Source of the DNA: Eledone cirrhosa
Lineage: Eukaryota
DNA length: 64,000 nt
Assembly (NCBI GenBank): GCA_964016885.1
Contig: OZ024741.1
Coordinates: 404,426,001 to 404,490,000, forward strand
Reading direction: 5' to 3'
Both the position numbers and the translations under genes were made by a program. This document shows, one piece after another, positions 2,283-55,340 of this stretch. Every line of letters begins with the position of its first letter. The stretch's first letter is position 1. The notes beneath the pieces are model-generated. The model saw nothing but the letters and a program-made list of their open reading frames with translations, ran no database searches and was not told the origin of the DNA.

Positions 2283-2284
<2 letters not shown>

Positions 2285-2482
2285 CGAAGGAAATGTGGTA
2301 AGGAACCAGGTGGACCATAACGCACCAAAGTACTCAATACTTAGGGTAGTAGAGTGGGTAATAGGAACAAGTAAGACCCCAACGGCTGAGCTCAAGCCGT
2401 TTCGACGGCTAATTCTGTACTGGATTAGTACAGAATTAGCCATCGAAACGGCTTGAGCTCAGCCGTCGGGGTCTTACTTGTT

Positions 2483-2484
<2 letters not shown>
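2283..2484. mobile_element. Family B fold-back element in (TA)n (long left arm, short right arm)
   Basis: Inverted arms ~2362-2421 and ~2427-2484; contains GAAA-CGGCT-TGAGCTC-AGCCG-TC (HHR 3' half); both flanks are (TA)n. Confidence 0.85.
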
Positions 2485-2539
<55 letters not shown>

Positions 2540-6189: not shown

Positions 6190-6635
6190 TGATAACTGTT
6201 TCTACGTTTGGCACAAGACCAATAATTTTGGGGGTGGGGAAAGTCGATTAAATCGACCCCAGTGTGCTACTAGTACTATATTTTATCGTCCCCACAAGGA
6301 TGAAAAGCAAAGTTAACCTCGACGGGATTTGAACATAGAAAATTAAAGGGCCGTAACTATATGCCGTAAAGCATTTTGTCCGGTGCTCTACCGACACTTC
6401 TAATCCTCCGCCCTAGCAACAACAACAATTGTTCCTACTTTTGGCACAAGGCCAGCAATTATCCCAGTACATTACTGGTACTTTATTGTATCGACCACGT
6501 AAGGATGAAAGGCAGCGTTAACCTTGGCGGGAGCAACAAGGCTGATTATGATGAAACAAACGTTAAAGGGCCGTAACTATATGCCGTAAAGCATTTTGTC
6601 CTGTACTCTACCGACACTGCTAATCCACCACCCTA
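6190..6635 (-). mobile_element. Cluster of tRNA-derived SINE copies and fragments
   Basis: Same Nin-like family in reverse orientation, partially duplicated. Confidence 0.8.
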
Positions 6636-8662: not shown

Positions 8663-9171
8663 CGTTTCTGAATTTGTTTAGCAAGATTCTTTATCTGAAA
8701 TCGTGTGTTGAAACCGATATTGTTATACTTTGGGAGGGTCATGTTGCCAATAAGAAACACACGCACCAGTTGCTTTCACTTCAATTTATTATATATTTAT
8801 AAATTTACAAATTTACAAATCTACAAACTTATAAATTTCTGGTTGGTTGGTTGGTTCCACAACCAGATAGTTGTTTATATATAGTGATAGTCCTTTCGTC
8901 ACACACTCTGTGACCTCTTCAGTGACTGGGGATACCTTTCTTTGTTTCTGTGCCTTTCCTTTCTTCTGTCTTACGCCATTTTGTTTCTGTGTGTGTGTTG
9001 TGTGCTCAGTTTGCGCATGCGCCACATCCGGGTGTCTGTGTGTGTTTGTGTTCATTTATCTATTTGTTTATTTATTTATTTATTTATTGTTGGTTGGTTG
9101 TTTGTTCTATGTGTGTGTGTGTTTTCATTTAGTCCTTAATTGTAAGTTGTGATGTTGCTGTTCCACTCACT

Positions 9172-10251: not shown

Positions 10252-10459
10252 GGACTAAATGAAAACACACACACACATAGAACAAACAACCAACCAACAA
10301 TAAATAAATAAATAAATAAACAAATAGATAAATGAACACAAACACACACAGACACCCGGATGTGGCGCATGCGCAAACTGAGCACACAACACACACACAG
10401 AAACAAAATGGCGTAGCACAGAAGAAAGGAAAGGCACAGAAACAAAGAAAGGAATCCCC

Positions 10460-10504
10460 AGTCACTGAAGAGGTCACAGAGTGTGTGACGAAAGGACTAT
10501 GACT
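10460..10504 (+). ncRNA. Minimal type-I hammerhead ribozyme (family A)
   Basis: Stem I AGTCA/TGACT; CTGAAGA; stem II GTCACA/TGTGAC; GAAA-GGAC-TA. Further copies at 8883-8927 (-) and 54854-54896 (+). Confidence 0.85.
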
Positions 10505-10662
10505 ATATATAAACAACTATCTGGTTGTGGAACCAACCAACCAACCAGAAATTTATAAGTTTGTAGATTTGTAAATTTATAAATTTATAAATATATAATA
10601 AATTGAAGTGAAAGCAACTGGTGCGTGTGTTTCTTATTGGCAACATGACCCTCCAAAAGTAT

Positions 10663-12032: not shown

Positions 12033-12191
12033 CATATATATATCTATAGTGTATCTAAAAAAATGTATACACATATTTATTAGAGTGTGTATACATATTT
12101 GGAGGACACCCTGTATATATCTAAAAACCTATCTATCTCTCCACCCTCTCTCTAGCTATATATAGATATATATATATATATATATATATGT

Positions 12192-12575
12192 ATAATATAA
12201 AATAAAAAAGATGGTTAAAAGAGTTCCATGTATTTTATTATGCGCATTTCAAAAACAAATATTTTCATGGGATGATATTTGCGTTCTCATCAGATAAGAT
12301 AGGAAGACATGATATGAAGCTTAAAAAACATTGCAAGCAGTGAAGTGTTAAATCGACATATGAAAAATAAAATAAGATGGATATATGAGATTGGAAAAAA
12401 GGAGTAAAAGGGGGAAGGAAAAGGTAAGGAAGATTTTATATTGTTTATTGATTTTATATTATTTATCGATTTTATATTATTTATTGATTTTATATTATTT
12501 ATACTCCAGTCCTATAAACTTTTGTTATTTCTGTTTACTTTTTACATACATACATATATACATACATATATACAT

Positions 12576-12615
<40 letters not shown>

Positions 12616-12747
12616 AGATCAAAAGATGGTTAAAGGAGTTCCATGTATTTTATTATGCGCATTTCAAAAAAAAACATCATCATGCAATGATATTTGTGTT
12701 TTCATCAGATAAAACAGGAGAACATGATATGAAGGCTAAAAAACACT

Positions 12748-12819: not shown

Positions 12820-13022
12820 GACCTGTTATTTTTATCTAAAGACAATTTTTCCAATTTCAACCCGCCCGTCCCCTCAATCTATCTTATTTCTCATTCTTTC
12901 TTCTGATGAAGCACTAGCGTCCGAAACGTTAAGACTCTCTCCCTGCTATATGAAGCGTTAACCTAATATATACCTTTCATATACTGTACCGATTGTGTTG
13001 TTATTTCTGTTTACCTTTTACA
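12820..13022 (+). mobile_element. Family E PLE-type 3'-end fragment
   Basis: Reverse-complement homologues at 49748-49828 and 55653-55840; carries an HHR. Confidence 0.8.
12899..12934 (+). ncRNA. Minimal type-I hammerhead ribozyme (family E)
   Basis: TCTT-CTGATGA-A-G(C/G)AC-TAGC-GTCC-GAAA-CG-TT-AAGA with palindromic AACGTT; the copy at 55741-55776 (-) has a perfect GGAC/GTCC stem II. Confidence 0.8.
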
Positions 13023-13051: not shown

Positions 13052-13089
<38 letters not shown>

Positions 13090-13097
<8 letters not shown>

Positions 13098-14490
13098 AGA
13101 TCAAAAGATGGTTAAAGGAGTTCCATGTATTTTATTATGCGCATTTCAAAAACAAACATCATCATGCAATAATATTTGTCTTTTCATCAGATAAAACAGG
13201 AGAACATGATATGAAGGCTAAAAAACACTTGTGGATAGTGCAGTTTTAAATCAACATATGAAAAGTAGTTTTAGATTGATGTGTGATATGGGGAAAAATA
13301 TTTTATTTAGAGAGGGGCGGGGGAAGGATGAAAAAAAGGGGAGGAGATGAGAGTGAAGGTGGAGAGGGAGAGATGGGTGATAGAGAGAAAGAGATAGTTT
13401 TTATAACTGAGAAAAGATATATTGTTTTACATAGAGAGTTTGAGAACCGTTGGAAGATAATGTATAAATTAAAAGAATTTGAAAATTAACGAAGGGAAAG
13501 AGAGGGAGTATTGAGATTAATGTATTGAGATTAAAAAGTTTGAACATAGAGAGAAAAAAATAATAATTGCGGATGAATATTCTAACGTCAAAAAGGTGTA
13601 TGTTTATAAGTATTATAGCAATTCCAAAATTAATTTTCAAATTTCAAATTCTTTTAATTTACACATTATCTTCCAACGGTTCTCAACCTCTCTATGTAAA
13701 ACAATATATCTTTTCTCAGTTATAAAAACTATCTCTTTCTCTCTATCACCCATCTCTCCCTCTCCACCTTCACTCTCATCTCCTCTCCTTTTTTCATCCT
13801 TCCCCCCCCCCTCTCTAAATAAAATAATTTTCCTCGTACATATTTTTCCCTTCGTTAATTTTCAAATTCTTTTAATTCATACATTATCTTCCAACGGTTC
13901 TCAACCTCTCTATGTAAAACAATATATCTTTTCTCAGTTATAAAAACTATCTCTTTCTCTCTATCACCCATCTCTCCCTCTCCACCTTCACTCTCATCTC
14001 CTCCCCTTTTTTCATCCTTTCCACCCCACTCTCTAAATAAAATAATTTTTCCTCGTACATATTTTTCCCTTCGTTAATTTTCAAATTCTTTTAATTTATA
14101 CATTATCTTCCAACGGTTTTCAACCTCTCTATGTAAAACAATATATCTTCTCTCAGTTATAAAAACTATCTCTTTCTCTCTATCACCCATCTCTCCCTCT
14201 CCACCTTTACTCTCATCTCCTCCCCTTTTTTTCATCCTTTCCACCACCCCCCTCTCTAAATAAAATATTTTTCCCAATATCACACATCAATCTAAAACTA
14301 CTTTTCATATGTTGATTTAAAACTGCACTATCCACAAGTGTTTTTTAGCCTTCATATCATGTTCTCCTGTTTTATCTGATGAAAAGACAAATATTATTGC
14401 ATGATGATGTTTGTTTTTGAAATGCGCATAATAAAATACATGGAACTCCTTTAACCATCTTTTGATCTTATATATTATGTATACTCCAGT

Positions 14491-14492
<2 letters not shown>
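13090..14492. mobile_element. Family C non-coding inverted insertion (two 3' ends head to head)
   Basis: Minus arm ~13090-13633, plus arm ~13630-14492, joined at TTAA; HHRs at 13130-13196 (-) and 14370-14436 (+); three ~220-bp sub-repeats. Confidence 0.9.
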
Positions 14493-14536
<44 letters not shown>

Positions 14537-16328
14537 GGAGGTGAGTTTTATTGTAGTACAATAAAGCAATGCAGATATCGGATAAGAAGCACTCTACAGT
14601 TTGTAGGACTGGAGTATACATAATATAAGATGAAAAGATGGTTAAAGGAGTTCCATGTATTTTATTATGCGCATTTCAAAAAAAAACATCATCATGCAAT
14701 AATATTTGTGTTTTCATCAGATAAAACAGGAGAACATGATATGAAGGCTAAAAAACACTTGTGGATAGTGCAGTTTTAAATTAACATATGAAAAGTGGTT
14801 TTAGATTGATGTGTGATATTGGGAAAAATATTTTATTTAGAGAGGGGGTGGGTGGAAAGGATGAAAAAGGGGAGGAGATGAGAGGGAGAGATGGGTGATA
14901 GAGAGAAAGAGATAGTTTTTATAACTGAGAGGAGATATATTGTTTTACATAGAGAGGTTGAGAACCGTTGGAAGATAATGTATAAATTAAAGGAATTTGA
15001 AAATTAACGAAGGGAATTTATGTATGAAGATAGAGAGAAAAAATAATAATTGTGGATGAATATTCTAACGTCAAAAAAAGTGTATGTTGATAAGTATTGT
15101 GGCAATTTCAAAATTAACGAAGAGAAAAATTATTAAGGTTTGTGTGTAGAAGGATTTGAGAAAAATAATGTGAAGTTAAAGTTTGTATATTGAAGGAATT
15201 GATAATATATGCGAATAAAGAGTTAATATGTATTAAGAATGAGTTCGTTGATGGGGAGAAAAAAATAATAAATTAAGGATGAAATTGAGATTAAAAAGAT
15301 TTATGATAGAGAGAAAAAATAATAATGATTGCGGATGAATATTCTAACGTCAAAAAAACAAATGTATATGTTATGAAGGATTTTACAAGGTGAAGATAGA
15401 ATGAGGGTAATGAGTAAACAAGTATTATAGAGTGTATAATGCCCTTTAAAGTAAGGTAGGAAGATGGGTATATTTTAAAGAGGTGTATGTATATGTGCCT
15501 TTGAGAAAAGATTCTAAATTGATAAAGAATTGAATATTAACTGTATACTTTGTGAAAAGTCCTATGGAATTTATGCAGGCAGATAGAAAACAAATCTGTA
15601 CGTCTATTTATTATAGAATCTAGGTTAGAGATAATGGTAAATTTTTCATTTAGGCAGAGATTACAGATTTTAGATAGAGAGCTGTTCAAGTATGAGGATG
15701 CAGAAGAAACCTTCTTCCAAAAGATGGTATATTTAATGTTTTTGTCTTTTAAGGACCATATGAGTTCTGAGAGAGCAGTGTTGGTTCTTTTAAGTTTGTA
15801 TTTGAAAGATGAATGATGATTATAGAGACGAACTTTAAAAGAGGTGGAAGTGGAGCCAAAATAGGTGAAGGAATTGGTGCTAGTTATAATTTTACATTCA
15901 TAAATTAAGTTTTTATCGAGACAATGGTTGTTGAGAGGACATTTATTTTTAATGCGGCAGTTGCAATTAGAGAGATTATTAATGAGTGACCTAGTGTTAT
16001 CTATAGAAGGAATTGGATTGGAGAAGTTGTTTGCGATAGGAATAATAGGAATAATAGTTTCTTGATTTAGAGTTGGATTATGAACATTTAGCGAAGTTGT
16101 GTTTGACGTTGTATTTGGGTTTACAGAAGTTAGCCTAGGGTTTACAATGACGTCGGGAGTACTATTACTGTTATTATGAAATTCAATGTTGGAAGGAAGA
16201 GATTTAGTATTTAGTATTTTATTGTTGTGTTTAGAGATGATGTTGGAAATATTGGAGGATGTAGAATAAGAAAATTTGATGGTGCACTATCCACAAGTGT
16301 TTTTTAGCCTTCATATCATGTTCGCCTG

Positions 16329-16395
16329 TTTTATCTGATGAAAACACAAATATTATTGCATGATGATGTTTGTTTTTGAAATGCGCATAATAAAA
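16329..16395 (+). ncRNA. Type-I hammerhead ribozyme in 5' pLTR (family C)
   Basis: Stem I TTTTAT/ATAAAA; CTGATGA; 12-bp stem II ACAAATATTATT/GATGATGTTTGT with GCAT loop; GAAA; palindromic ATGCGCAT; predicted cut after 16389. Confidence 0.9.
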
Positions 16396-16601
16396 TACAT
16401 GGAACTCCTTTAACCATCGTTTGATCCTATATTATGTATACTCCAGTCCTACAAACTGTAGAGTGCTTCTTATCCGATATCTGCATTGCTTTATTGTACT
16501 ACAATAAAACTCACCTCCTACATTAACTTGCTCCTTAACGGTTGAGCGCTTACTCTCATATCGGATACCTTTTGATGGTCCTTCACCTCTTCTTCTACAA
16601 C

Positions 16602-19004: not shown

Positions 19005-20037
19005 TATTCAATTCTTTATCAATTTAGAATCTTTTCTCAAAGGCACATATACATACACCTCTTTAAAATATACCCATCTTCCTACCTTACTTTAAAGGGC
19101 ATTATACACTCTATAATACTTGTTTACTCATTACCCTCATTCTATCTTCACCTTGTAAAATCCTTCATAACATATACATTTGTTTTTTTGACGTTAGAAT
19201 ATTCATCCGCAATCATTATTATTTTTTCTCTCTATCATAAATCTTTTTAATCTCAATTTCATCCTTAATTTATTATTTTTTTCTCCCCATCAACGAACTC
19301 ATTCTTAATACATATTAACTCTTTATTCGCATATATTATCAATTCCTTCAATATACAAACTTTAACTTCACATTATTTTTCTCAAATCCTTCTACACACA
19401 AACCTTAATAATTTTTCTCTTCGTTAATTTTGAAATTGCCACAATACTTATCAACATACACTTTTTTTGACGTTAGAATATTCATCCACCATTATTATTT
19501 TTTCTCTCTATCTTCATACATAAATTCCCTTCGTTAATTTTCAAATTCCTTTAATTTATACATTATCTTCCAACGGTTCTCAACCTCTCTATGTAAAACA
19601 ATATATCTTTTTCTCAGTTATAAAAACTATCTCTTTCTCTCTATCACCCATCTCTCCCTCTCCACCTTCACTCTCATCTCCTCCCCCTTTTTTCATCCTT
19701 TCCACCCACCCCCTCCCTAAATAAAATATTTTTTCCTCGCACATATCCTCCCTTCCTTAATTTTCAAATTTTTTTAATTTATACATTATCTTCCAACGGT
19801 TTTCAACCTCTCTATGTAAAACAATATATCTCCTCTCAGTTATAAAAACTATCTCTTTCTCTCTATCACCCATCTTTCCCTCTCATCTCCTCCCCTTTTT
19901 CATCCTTTCCACCCCCACCCTCTCTAAATAAAATATTTTTCCCAATATCACACATCAATCTAAAACCACTTTTCATATGTTGATCTAAAACTGCACTATC
20001 CACAAGTGTTTTTTAGACTTCATATCATGTTCTCCTG

Positions 20038-20104
20038 TTTTATCTGATGAAAAGACAAATATTATTGCATGATGATGTTTGTTTTTGAAATGCGCATAAT
20101 AAAA
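20038..20104 (+). ncRNA. Type-I hammerhead ribozyme in 3' pLTR (family C)
   Basis: Same structure as 16329-16395; predicted cut after 20098. Confidence 0.9.
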
Positions 20105-20134
20105 TACATGGAACTCCTTTAACCATCTTTTGAT

Positions 20135-20194
<60 letters not shown>

Positions 20195-20199
<5 letters not shown>

Positions 20200-20575
20200 A
20201 AGGTCCTTGTAAGGTCCTTGGTACACTTAGGTATATTTTAAAAAAAGGAAAAGAATGACTTAATTTGTAGTTCTAAATAATTTGATTTATAATATAATAA
20301 TATGAGTTGGTACCGTGGATTGGCTGTATCGGTAGAGGGTCGGACGTCATGAATTGAAGCATAGAGTTACCTCCCTGTATGATCTGAGTTCAAATCCCGC
20401 CGAGGTTAGCTTTGCGTTTCATCCTTACGGGGTCGATAAAATAAAGTACCAGTAATACACTGGTATAATTGGTGGCCTTGTGCCAAAAGTAGAAACAATT
20501 ATTATAATATTATAAAATTAAATCAAATTATTTAGAACTACAAGTGAAGTCATTCTTTTCCTTTTTTTCAAATAT
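20195..20575. mobile_element. Fold-back element in (TA)n with a SINE at its centre
   Basis: AAAAAAGGAAAAGAATGACTT..TTGTAGTTCTAAATAATTTGATTTA (~20240-20289) is inverted at ~20519-20568; the left arm is longer. Confidence 0.7.
20303..20503 (+). mobile_element. tRNA-derived SINE (Nin/Deu-like)
   Basis: Matches the family consensus. Confidence 0.9.
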
Positions 20576-21356: not shown

Positions 21357-21555
21357 GGGGAAAGAATTAGAAACCCGACGGCTGAGCTCCGGCCGTTTTG
21401 ACAGCTAGATCCGAGCGTTCGGATCTAGCTGTCGAAACGGCCGGAGCTCAGCCGTCGGGGTCCTGACTTTTTCCTATTACCCACTCTACCACCATATATG
21501 TCGAGTACTCTGCTGCGTTATAGTCCGCCTGGTTCCTTACCACACTTTCTTTGTT
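21357..21555. mobile_element. Family B fold-back (diverged subfamily; short left arm, long right arm)
   Basis: CCCGACGGCTGAGCTCCGGCCG...AGATCCGA-GCGT-TCGGATCT...GAAACGGCCGGAGCTCAGCCGTCGGGG. Confidence 0.85.
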
Positions 21556-27307: not shown

Positions 27308-27702
27308 GGAGGTGAGTTTTATTGTAGTACAATAAAGCAATGCAGATATTGGATAAGTAGCACTCTACAGTTTGTAGGACTGGAGTATAAATAATAATAT
27401 ATAAGATCAAAAGATGGTTAAAAGAGTTCCATGTATTTTATTATGCGCATTTCAAAAACAAATATCATCATGCAATAACATTTGCATTTTCATCAGATAA
27501 AATAGGGAGACATGATATGAAGGTTAAAACACACTTGTGAATTGTTGATTTAAAACTGCACTATTCACAAGTGTGTTTTAACCTTCATATCATGTCTCCC
27601 TATTTTATCTGATGAAAACGCAAATGTTATTGCATGATGATATTTGTTTCTGAAATGCGCATAATAAAATACATGGAACTCTTTTAACCATCTTTTGATC
27701 TT
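27304..27702. mobile_element. Family C fold-back (long left arm, short right arm) with two HHRs
   Basis: Same termini as 14533 and 20138; HHRs at ~27436-27502 (-) and ~27603-27669 (+). Confidence 0.9.
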
Positions 27703-27721
27703 ATATATATATATATATATT

Positions 27722-28015: not shown

Positions 28016-28021
<6 letters not shown>

Positions 28022-28197
28022 GTATGACCCCGACGGCAGAGCTCAAACCGTTTCGACGGCTATTTCTGGACTAGTCATTTTCCTATTACCGATTACATAT
28101 TACCCATACATTTTCCTATTACCCACTCTACTACCCTAAGTATTGAGTACTCTGGTGTGTTATGGTCCATCTGGTTCCTTACCACAACTCCTTCGTT
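28016..28197. mobile_element. Family B inverted insertion
   Basis: Short minus arm GACCCCGACGGCAGAGCTC..., long plus arm ending CCTTCGTT followed by (AT)n. Confidence 0.8.
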
Positions 28198-30001: not shown

Positions 30002-30059
<58 letters not shown>

Positions 30060-30060
<1 letters not shown>

Positions 30061-30110
30061 GGAACAAGTAAGACCCCCGACGGCTGAGCTCAAGCCGTTT
30101 CGACGGCTAA
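30060..30110 (-). mobile_element. Family B single short arm between (TA)n runs
   Basis: GGAACAAGTAAGACCCCCGACGGCTGAGCTCAAGCCGTTTCGACGGCTAA. Confidence 0.85.
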
Positions 30111-30184
30111 TATATATATATATATATACACACATAAGTGTATGTAGATATAATTATATATGTATGTGTATATATATATATATG

Positions 30185-32567: not shown

Positions 32568-32974
32568 GAACGCAAGATTAGCAGTAACAGTAGAGCGTCG
32601 GACACCATGCCTTACAGTATAGAGTTATGGCCCTTTACGGTATGGGTTCATATCCTGCCGAGGTTAGCTTTGCCTTTCATCCTTATGAGGTCGATAAAAT
32701 AAAGTACCACTGGGATCGATTTAATCGATTTTCTCCTCCCCAAAAATTGCTGGCCTTGTTCCTATAGTAGAAATCCTTATTATTCTTATCATGTTATAAG
32801 AATAATAATGATTTAAACTTCTTTGCAGCATAGAGTTAGGGCCCTTTACGGTTTAAGTTCATATCTCGCCGAGGTTAACTTTACCTTTCATCTTTACGGG
32901 GTCAATAAAATAAAGTACCAGTAATGCACTGGGATAATTGCTAGCCTTGTGCCAAAAGTGGAAACAATTATTAT
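32568..32974 (+). mobile_element. Two tRNA-derived SINE copies
   Basis: Nin-like bodies. Confidence 0.8.
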
Positions 32975-34660: not shown

Positions 34661-34844
34661 GGGCGGTGAATTGGCAGTATCGGTAGAGGGTGGGACGCCC
34701 TGCTTTGACGCATAGAATTACGGCCCTTAGAGTTCAAATCCCGCCGAGGTCAACTTTGCCTTTCATCCTTACGGGGTCGATAAAATAAAGTACCAATAAT
34801 GTACTGGGTATTTGCTGGCCTTGTCCCAAAAGTAGAAACAATTA
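34661..34844 (+). mobile_element. tRNA-derived SINE (Nin/Deu-like)
   Basis: Matches the family consensus. Confidence 0.9.
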
Positions 34845-35144
34845 TATACGATCAAATAATGAATACATTTTTCTTTTGGTGTTCATGCTATTTCTAAGTG
34901 TTGAATCAAAAAATTGGTGTGGACTCTGGAATACACGAGCAACATTTAAAAGTTTCAGGGAAAATTTTGTTCTGGGAGCAATTGTACAACATCGGGTTTT
35001 TACACTAGAAATTGCGTTCCTATATGAGAGTTTGAGAAGGGAAGTATTTGGATCTGACACTACCATTCCTTATCTGGTTTCTTTCTTGTATGACGAGAAA
35101 CCTATATATTTATTTAATGTAGAAAATGATGTTTAAGAAGGCTA

Positions 35145-35542
35145 AGATAATTGTTTCTACTTTTGGCACAAGGCCAGCAATAATTCCAGTGTATTACTGG
35201 TACTTTATGTTATCGACCCCGTAAGGATGAAAGACAAAGTTAACCTCGGCAGATTTGAACTCAGACCATAAAAGGCCATAACTCTTTGCTGCAAAGCATG
35301 GCGTCAGACCCTCTACTGATACTGCCACACCACCACTAGATAAGAAGGCTAAGATAATTGTTTCCACTTTTGGCACAAGGCCAGCACATACCCAGTGTAT
35401 TACTGGTACTTTATTTTATCGACCATGTAAGGATGAAAGGCAAAGTTAACCTCGGCAGGATTCGAACACAGAATGGCAACGGCCGTAACTCTGTGCGTGA
35501 AAGCATGGCGTCCAACCCTCTACCGATACTACAAATCCACCG
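35145..35542 (-). mobile_element. Two tandem tRNA-derived SINEs
   Basis: Each is preceded by AAGAAGGCTAAGATAATTG on the plus strand. Confidence 0.88.
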
Positions 35543-35674
35543 CACATTGAACGCTAAGATAATGCGGAATAAAAGACGTACCTTTTATGTAACATATAAT
35601 TCACGTCAGCTTTTAAGAGAGTAGAGATGTAATGGGTGGAAATGTTCGGAGTTGTTAAAGTTTTTAAATTTGAC

Positions 35675-40499: not shown

Positions 40500-40817
40500 A
40501 TAATTTAGCGAGAATCGCATTTCGGCGGGTAGAAATTAACGAAACGCATCTTCAATAATGTGCAGACAAGCGCTCCATGCATATGAAGAGGATAGCAGAG
40601 CTATAAACATGAGTTAAAATGGTCATACACGCTGAGATGATGGTTAAGAAGCCATAGCCACCATAGCCAAAAAAGCGAGTACTCAATACTTAGGGTAGTA
40701 GAGTGGGAAATAAGAAAATGTAAGACCCCGACGACTGAGCTCGAGCCGTTTCGATGGCTATTTCGGGACTGAAATAGCCGTCGAAACGGCTTGAGCTCTG
40801 CCGTCGGGGTTATACTT

Positions 40818-40822
<5 letters not shown>
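40500..40822. mobile_element. Chimeric family I / family B fold-back
   Basis: Family I terminus (-) 40500-40680 fused through GAGT to the family B hairpin 40677-40822. Confidence 0.75.
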
Positions 40823-40845
<23 letters not shown>

Positions 40846-40848
<3 letters not shown>

Positions 40849-41037
40849 ATTGTTTTTACTTTTTGGCACAAGGCCAGCAATTACACAGTGCATTACTGGT
40901 ACTTTATTTTATCGATCCCGTAAGGATGAAAGGCAAAATTAACCTCGGCGGGATTTGAACTCAGAATGGAAAGGGCCGCAACTCTATGCGTCAAAGCATG
41001 GCGTCGACCCTCTACAGATACTGCCAATCCACCGCCA
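40846..41037 (-). mobile_element. tRNA-derived SINE (Nin/Deu-like)
   Basis: Matches the family consensus. Confidence 0.9.
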
Positions 41038-49919: not shown

Positions 49920-49921
<2 letters not shown>

Positions 49922-50112
49922 CGAAGGAAATGTGGTAAGGAACCAGGTGGACCATAACGCACCAAAGTACTCAATACTTAGGGTAGTAGAGTGGGTAATA
50001 GGAACGAGTAGGACCCCGACGGCTGAGCTCAAGCCGTTTCGACTGCTAATTTTTTAGTCCAGAATTAGCCGTCGAAACGGCTTGAGCTCAGCCGTCGGGG
50101 TCCTACTCGTTC
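49920..50112. mobile_element. Family B fold-back (long left arm, short right arm)
   Basis: Near-identical to 2283-2484 with a different loop junction. Confidence 0.9.
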
Positions 50113-50122
50113 ATATATATAT

Positions 50123-54569: not shown

Positions 54570-55104
54570 ATGCTTTGGGAGGGTCATGTTGCCAATAAAA
54601 AACACACGCACCAGTTGCTTTCACTCCAATTTATTATAAATTAAATTTATAAATTTAAGAATTTATAAATTTCTGGTTGGTTGGTTGGTTTCACAACCGG
54701 ACGGTTGTTCATATATTGTCAAATAAACAAATATAAACACACACAGACACCCGGATGTAACACATGCGCTAACTAAGCACACAACGCACACACAAACAAG
54801 ATGGCGTAGGACAGAACAAAGGAGAGGCACAAATACAAAGTAAAGAATCCACAGTCACTGAAGAGGTCACAGAATGTGTAACGAAAGAACTTTGACAATA
54901 TATGAACAACCGTCCGGTTGTGGAACCAACCAACCAACCGGAAATTTATAAATTCTTAAATTTATAATTCTAATTTATAATAAATTGGAGTGAAAGCAGC
55001 TAGTGCGTGTGTTTCTTATTGGCAGCATGACCCTCCGAAAGCATAACAATATCGGTTTCAACACACGTTTTCAGATAAAGAATCTTGCTAAACAAATTCA
55101 GAAA

Positions 55105-55143: not shown

Positions 55144-55144
<1 letters not shown>

Positions 55145-55338
55145 CAAAATGTTCAAGACCCCGACGGTAGGGTTCAAGCCGTTTCGACGGCTATTTCTGG
55201 AGTCCAGAAATAGCCGTCAAAACGGATTGAATTCTGCCGTCGGGTCTTGAACATTTTCCTATTACCCACTCTACTAGCCACAGTATTGAGTACTCTGGTG
55301 CGTTATGGTCCACCAGGTTCCTTAACACACGTCCTTCG

Positions 55339-55340
<2 letters not shown>
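55144..55340. mobile_element. Family B fold-back (short left arm, long right arm)
   Basis: Hairpin centred on TTTCTGGA-G-TCCAGAAA. Confidence 0.88.

Follow-up and report, generated by a model that had tools for sequence, protein, structure and literature searches.

The small hairpins found in a 64,000-nt window of the Eledone cirrhosa genome (contig OZ024741.1, positions 404,426,001 to 404,490,000; window positions below count from its first letter) are the smallest insertions of a 3.6-kb Penelope-like element (PLE) of the Hydra clade, which targets (TA)n. Each hairpin very probably stems from two cDNAs. Judging from the sequences at which they end, the arms are likely to be strong-stop cDNAs, copies that ran off the 5′ end of an RNA about 18 nt upstream of the GAAA of a predicted hammerhead ribozyme (relative positions take the G of GAAA as 0 on the sense strand of the element).

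A sequence-only reading of the window had listed seven hairpins. All seven sites exist, within or adjoining (TA)n, but folding identified hairpins at only five of them (2283, 21357, 40677, 49920 and 55144), which form about 60 bp at −87 to −129 kcal/mol and are each asymmetric, with a single ~80-nt tail. The half-ribozyme described there, GAAA-CGGC(N9)GCCG-TC-GGGG, is present in at least one arm at 7/7 sites, with the loop GAGCTC as claimed and GAATTC in the plus-strand arm at 55219, and a tighter pattern gave six exact matches in the window versus none in 100 shuffles. The same reading was right that the 5′ half of the ribozyme core is absent from every window copy, that the arms break just upstream of GAAA (those measured in the window terminate 10-19 nt upstream of it) and that the junctions vary from copy to copy. 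An Rfam scan of the whole window gave no match.

In the first hairpin the tailed arm lies on the minus strand. Its 79-nt tail (2283..2361), assigned to the first bases of the element body by a match to unit positions 1-84 of the parent copy L063, contains bulged hairpin 1 as judged by folding, and the rest of the arm (2362..2421) comprises the helix II 3′ strand, GAAA, helix III, GUC and the helix I 3′ strand, extending to about −19. A 41-nt junction (2404..2444) with about four inserted bases separates the two GAAA anchors, and the untailed arm (2426..2486, plus strand; GAAA at 2445, predicted cut at 2467/2468) continues to the pLTR end and then (TA)n. The hairpin at 21357..21555 (plus strand; locus L121) belongs to an older subfamily, S3, and has its untailed arm on the minus and its tailed arm on the plus strand, with the tail at 21477-21555. 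Subfamily S2 is represented at 40678..40824 (first placed at 40677), where the tailed arm is on the minus strand with a tail shortened to 33 nt and the untailed arm is on the plus strand, and at 55144..55340, with the untailed arm on the minus and the tailed arm on the plus strand (tail at 55262-55340). The hairpin at 49920..50115 (L001), of subfamily S1, has its tailed arm on the minus and its untailed arm on the plus strand. At 28016..28197 no hairpin is formed: an untailed arm on the minus strand (28016-28073, to −19) is joined to reiterated filler and a tailed piece on the plus strand beginning at +28. The last site, first placed at 30060, is a lone 54-nt untailed arm (30058..30111, minus strand) that reaches −10 and is flanked by (TA)n tracts.

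A search of the 3.0-Gb genome with the window copies led to a copy joined to an RT frame, and so recovered the parent retroelement, with an ORF and the stem I partner CCCC, that had been postulated from the window. The parent unit, defined from 20 long loci hand-picked from 40 matches because their arms were visible, spans 3,573 nt and consists of the ~80-nt tail, an ATG at +213, the ORF, a 1.2-kb 3′ UTR and a terminus at +42. Parent copy L063 carries a single open frame of 790 codons with Y.DD and AYIG motifs, in which RT is followed by a C-terminal GIY-YIG. Atlas neighbours of the protein at 0.96-0.98 include some members with GIY-YIG/RVT_1; a Pfam scan of the ORF returned no family and a PDB sequence search with it no match. 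The parent displays the EN+ PLE anatomy of a pLTR, an inverted 5′-truncated copy and a one-sided tail.

Assignment to the Hydra clade is based on motifs, the (TA)n target and by-eye likeness to Hydra-1_Obim and Hydra-1_Ajap. The marks of this clade, in the accessible parts of PMC8557442, are an RWK motif, DKT, a CxCX5C linker, and CxxC and CxH around the EN E/N. Across the 20 long loci, the RWR variant of RWK was counted 14 times, HSDKT gave 18 hits, RPCNLC (CxxC) 18 and ACKH (CxH) 11, and the CxCX5C linker was intact in 5 of the 12 that could be read; a TA run directly follows 171 of 178 short untailed arms, as expected of a (TA)n target. The Naiad clade, with its N-terminal GIY-YIG, was ruled out because the endonuclease motifs come after RT, and the Neptune clade (CX2-5CxxC linker, DKG) because the parent has CxCX5C and DKT. 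A non-LTR retrozyme, in the available descriptions a head-to-tail tandem of monomers with whole ribozymes, was also rejected, the copies here being dispersed, head-to-head and limited to 3′ halves. With the C-terminal EN+ PLEs of the Hydra clade, such as Hydra-1_Obim (Craig et al. 2021, PMC8557442, accessible parts), the element shares the RW-basic motif, DKT, CxCX5C, CxxC, CxH, (TA)n and a hammerhead near the 3′ end. It differs in its ~80-nt tail, in its length (a 3.57-kb unit versus 2.5 kb for Hydra-1_Obim) and in having a U3-A8 core with a long helix II insert and a 5-6 bp helix III where Hydra-1_Obim has CUGAAGA.

In long copies, CCCC and a core of seven bases are followed by G, the 9-bp strand of helix II and an insert of 33 nt, after which comes the half known from the window. 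The parent ribozyme proposed from the window therefore holds in its hammerhead-type (type I) fold but not in its CUGANGA core, which was found upstream of the arms in none of the long copies examined; UUGANAA (95/136 long arms) or CUGANAA (37/136) takes its place. Position 8 is A in 136/136 long arms tallied, most of which had been selected with that A, U3 was counted by eye in 81 of the first 100 among 5,627 genome matches, and N7 is free (G, C, U or A). The U3-A8 variant keeps the 3-8 base pair together with GAAA and GUC, and is a described PLE hammerhead variant (PMC4209133). In 17 related sequences, whose relatedness inflates the shuffle control, 95.6% of helix cells are paired. Three helix II pairs differ between subfamilies on both sides, whereas helices I and III are paired without two-sided change. 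The hammerhead fold lies 0-3 kcal/mol from the MFE in seven copies. For S3, the helix II 5′ strand of the unseen parent was predicted from the copy at 21357, and the resulting pattern matched 98 times, compared to 0 for the control. Similar to the PLE hammerheads with a U3-A8 core (Cervera and de la Pena 2014, PMC4209133, in part available), the ribozyme shows U3-A8 covariation, a long helix II, a 4-5 bp helix I and opposite-strand pairs; unlike them, as far as the available text describes, it has a full helix III with a partly palindromic loop of 7-9 nt, G10.1 is followed by two unpaired bases, C3-A8 is uncompensated in one subfamily, and the hairpins contain 3′ halves only. No clear pile-up of tail-anchored ends was observed at the predicted cut (+23), which is matched exactly in L222 and L298. 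The uncompensated C3-A8 core occurs in near full-length copies (e.g. L040, L061-L079) of S1, an abundant subfamily that, judging from this core, is probably a weak cutter; S1 may thus have spread with a weakened ribozyme.

At least 62,056 S1/S2 arms were counted in the genome (exact pattern; reversed control 0), of which at least 5,627 (9%) hold the whole core. The hairpin census, which used exact patterns with 15-base anchors and in which every count is a lower bound (reversed controls all 0), gave at least 12,477 hairpins with 0-30 nt and at least 1,576 with 31-60 nt between the anchors, hence at least 14,053 in total, bearing out the earlier view that hairpins were generated repeatedly. Exact tail-to-body junctions number at least 75 in one subfamily. 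Hairpins are often inserted beside or into the (TA)n flank of older hairpins (L146, L243, L122, L125, L237 and others), and this serial insertion at (TA)n flanks yields clusters mixing subfamilies.

The architecture of the arms points to two separate copies. Exactly one arm is tailed in 106 of 107 hairpin pairs, a set that excludes loci L001-L030 and includes one pair that is probably a false long-range pairing. An apparent A/C arm difference in L002-L030 is a query selection bias; these loci were retained in the upstream-sequence and shared-variant tallies and in the extra-G set described below. The farther-reaching arm is the tailed one in 45 of 106 hairpins and the untailed one in 39, the two being equal in 22. 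In 20 further insertions the tailed arm stops before GAAA and has no stretch in common with the untailed arm, which mostly extends to −8 to −24, so that neither could have templated the other. One-tailed pairs together with these 20 insertions suggest two separately primed copies, not snap-backs. The same plan is seen in 17 of 20 long insertions (hand-picked and judged by eye), one of the others being without an outer tail and two without an inverted piece. Untailed ends fall at +39 to +42 in 213 of 242 cases, and a 4+4 bp bulged hairpin lies about 5 nt after each of the two end points (+42 and about +122). Junctions are blunt or overlap by 1 nt in 47/107 hairpins, the rest showing overlaps of more than 1 nt, runs of A/T or repeated pieces of the arms, as would be expected of end-joining. 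Two internal RT starts that bracket the tail, on both target strands, were demonstrated in vitro for Poseidon_Ac (Frangieh et al. 2024, PMC11167929); in the accessible parts of that study, the cutting and extension of both target strands and a template at the pLTR-ORF junction match the process proposed for our element, although Poseidon_Ac belongs to another clade. For PLEs, PMC3846280 and PMC8557442 already describe inverted 5′-truncated copies together with tails and palindromes at junctions, and PMC4209133 describes ribozyme pairs on opposite strands. Head-to-head outward-facing 3′ ends, a one-sided tail and palindromic or microhomology junctions are thus common to known EN+ PLE insertion units, for which the parts of PMC8557442 and PMC3846280 available report variable truncation and suggest self-priming, whereas in our element the two units are truncated at a single site, leaving 60 and 140 nt, more than 14,000 times.

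The snap-back in stem II proposed from the window, in which one cDNA would fold back in helix II and copy itself, has a precedent in the self-priming put forward for junction palindromes (PMC3846280), and some junctions are indeed perfect palindromes, and in L134 the switch falls on the 5′ strand of helix II. Variants common to both arms, 18 against about one expected, also speak for it; they recur across loci and look like rare subfamily markers, and one template or later conversion would fit as well. The arms, however, come from two RT start sites and either may be the longer (the untailed one in 39/106), the helix II loop is absent from most hairpins, and the 20 non-overlapping pairs, which cannot copy each other, largely refute the proposal. 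A minority of hairpins could have formed in this way, but as a general route it is highly improbable. We consider it just as far-fetched that the hairpins propagate themselves as a non-autonomous, MITE- or retrozyme-like family, with hairpin masters as the source of new copies. High copy number and a few recurring junction types, such as the 30-nt spacer of 20/107 hairpins, would suit such a family, but most junctions are unique and are found in either orientation with respect to the tail, recurring ones arose independently in three subfamilies, and long insertions follow the same plan.

The position at which arms end was assessed in a position-blind sample made up of 79 stretches on a grid, each 10 kb long, a further 200 kb adjoining the window, and the window itself. 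Among 62 distinct arms, a small sample of 62,056, 3 end before −8, 56 at −8 to −24 (mode −18) and 3 beyond, giving 56/59 stops for arms that pass −8; this split replaced two others (86/6 and 83/6) that included a set depleted of long arms by hand choice and de-duplication. Long arms make up at least 9% genome-wide, and on C1 they account for 16 of the first 100 arms; allowing for this, the real frequency of stops comes closer to 80-95%. The clustering of breakpoints anticipated in the sequence-only reading is strong in the plot of end positions, a pooled histogram that mixes selected sets. The end at −18 is the A of a conserved TTAGT/TCAGT in all three subfamilies. S3 ends at the same base despite its different, longer helix II, and within S3 TTAGT is 93-96% conserved versus 50-90% at −21 to −26. 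This motif resembles an invertebrate initiator. An extra, unexplained G, of the kind that copying of a cap would leave, precedes A(−18) at 10/18 junctions compared to 7/37 at other ends (p 0.011) in a small post hoc test that counted two arms of one insertion three times.

Copies that enter the upstream pLTR from the ORF provide a second pass over the same site. In 41 such junctions from 40 stretches, out of 75, 18 end downstream of −8, 6 at −8 to −24 and 17 beyond −30, so that 6/23 stopped, versus 56/59 on the first pass (Fisher p 5e-10; 2e-7 with a conservative 84/16 split); an older count of 0/15, possibly query-biased, was replaced by 6/23. A stall ought to affect both passes to the same extent, so the plain RT stall proposed earlier is disfavoured; the ends, moreover, have their peak past the foot of helix II. 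The six second-pass stops still exceed background (p 0.005), as is expected of full-length copies of an RNA starting there. ORF-start sequence was captured at junctions in L018 and L385. In the latter (G000:C1:27009300-27009970), a 257-nt unit reaching from about −21 to +236 is repeated head to tail: after ending at the pile-up site, its cDNA continued in the ORF start, so that a template jump can be seen directly; L018 is similar. Comparison of the pLTR-ORF junction with contigs of four runs gave matches from one run of unknown kind, and contigs cannot show an RNA start. In Drosophila virilis Penelope, transcription starts inside the pLTR from an internal promoter, according to the part of PMC2377424 available.

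Two other origins of the −18 end have to be weighed against an RNA start. Both cDNAs may have been primed in the same way on an RNA that extends upstream, RT pausing in or just past helix II, because of its structure or a bound protein, and being released; the ends do fall inside the helix II insert, and helix II itself is supported by covariation. We regard this as unlikely, given that only 6/23 copies stop on the second pass, that the peak at −17/−18 lies beyond the proximal helix (9-10 bp, with its foot at −1 to −3), that stems I and III show no comparable pile-up and that S3, with its longer helix II, ends at the same base. Nevertheless, enzymes already far along may pass pauses more easily, which counts against the RNA-start reading, as does the fact that TTAG/TCAG fits a splice acceptor too. 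An RNA end at about −16 produced by processing, with TTAG/TCAG as a 3′ splice acceptor (in cis or in trans) or a nuclease site, would account for the YAG with T or C at Y and the T-rich sequence ahead of it in S1 and S2, and a 5′-UTR intron is described at the ribozyme of D. virilis Penelope (PMC4209133, PMC2377424, available parts). However, other parts of the element lie within the 30 nt upstream of only 5/268 short S1/S2 arms, with no recurring upstream exon, no leader recurs among the junctions inspected, and the AG is usually retained by the arms, often with more, making processing quite improbable.

Returning to run-off at an RNA 5′ end as the reading we favour, the GIY-YIG domain would cut both strands of (TA)n, and RT would have two internal start sites, +42 and about +122, which lie about 80 nt from each other and each just ahead of a bulged hairpin. 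The template would be an mRNA beginning at the initiator-like TTA/TCA(+1)GT within the helix II insert, so that each cDNA would end after about 60 or 140 nt, and host end-joining could then link the two free ends with trimming, microhomology and templated filler. Trimming must be assumed because the ends spread over 17 nt and not at a single base. Long copies would derive from templates continuing upstream of −18, by read-through, multimer, circle or template jump; since 17/23 ORF-start copies pass −24, a template of this other kind, or a jump, has to be invoked. In LTR elements, minus-strand strong-stop DNA is a short cDNA that stops at the 5′ end of the RNA, and in L1 twin priming two primers at one target lead to an inversion. 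Here, the copies would be target-primed with no tRNA primer and no integrase, and both primers would start near the RNA 5′ end.

It is conceivable, though doubtful, that PLEs normally replicate by a retrovirus-like strong stop and strand transfer. Transcription would start at −18 inside the ribozyme, so that the 5′ copy could not cut itself and the 3′ copy would cut at +23, leaving a 41-nt terminal redundancy. The two target-primed cDNAs would be initiated close to the RNA 5′ end, reach the cap and then have to jump to the 3′ end, failed jumps giving hairpins and successful ones pLTRs, inversions and tails. If so, the hairpins would be a fossil record of a step so far missing from the PLE cycle. 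The accessible parts of PMC8557442 treat as an open question how pLTRs, inverted ends and tails arise in PLEs, the sister group of telomerase RTs. The hairpins boil a whole insertion down to two priming events and one sharp end point in more than 14,000 copies, and fix the two RT starts and a probable RNA start as three coordinates that allow a direct test of PLE self-copying. They also account for the half-ribozymes littering such genomes, which annotation may class as MITEs or SINEs, and could represent tens of thousands of 60-bp double-strand RNA substrates. PLE insertion anatomy and the U3-A8 core are already published; in the literature searched, which leaves aside subscription papers and Repbase, we found neither mass-produced minimal hairpins with fixed ends nor PLE strong-stop products, nor the run-off reading suggested by these sequences or the second-pass test.

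The window contains several other repeats. A dispersed ~240-nt family with CTGATGAAA (12157-12745, 13062-13298, 14268-14828, 16298-16435, 19936-20180 and 27394-27720) gave no hammerhead fold in the window scan. An abundant ~190-nt SINE-like family, in which ARAGORN detected no tRNA, often forms tandem or inverted pairs (199-591, 1705-2178, 6256-6627, 20316-20505, 32581-32974, 34663-34857, 35147-35544, 40846-41035 and others); unit positions 2889-2935 of L063, in the 3′ UTR, are a 47-nt piece of it, indicating that host repeat sequence was captured by the element. CUGANGA...GAAAC motifs with a short helix II at 12903 and 53408 (both plus strand) are possible minimal hammerheads of other families. 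A second (TA)n-ending family, at 8865-8942 (minus strand), 10445-10520 and 54838-54915 (both plus strand), carries a canonical CUGAAGA...GAAA minimal hammerhead with helix I CAGTC/GACT and a 6-bp helix II, and probably represents another PLE family.
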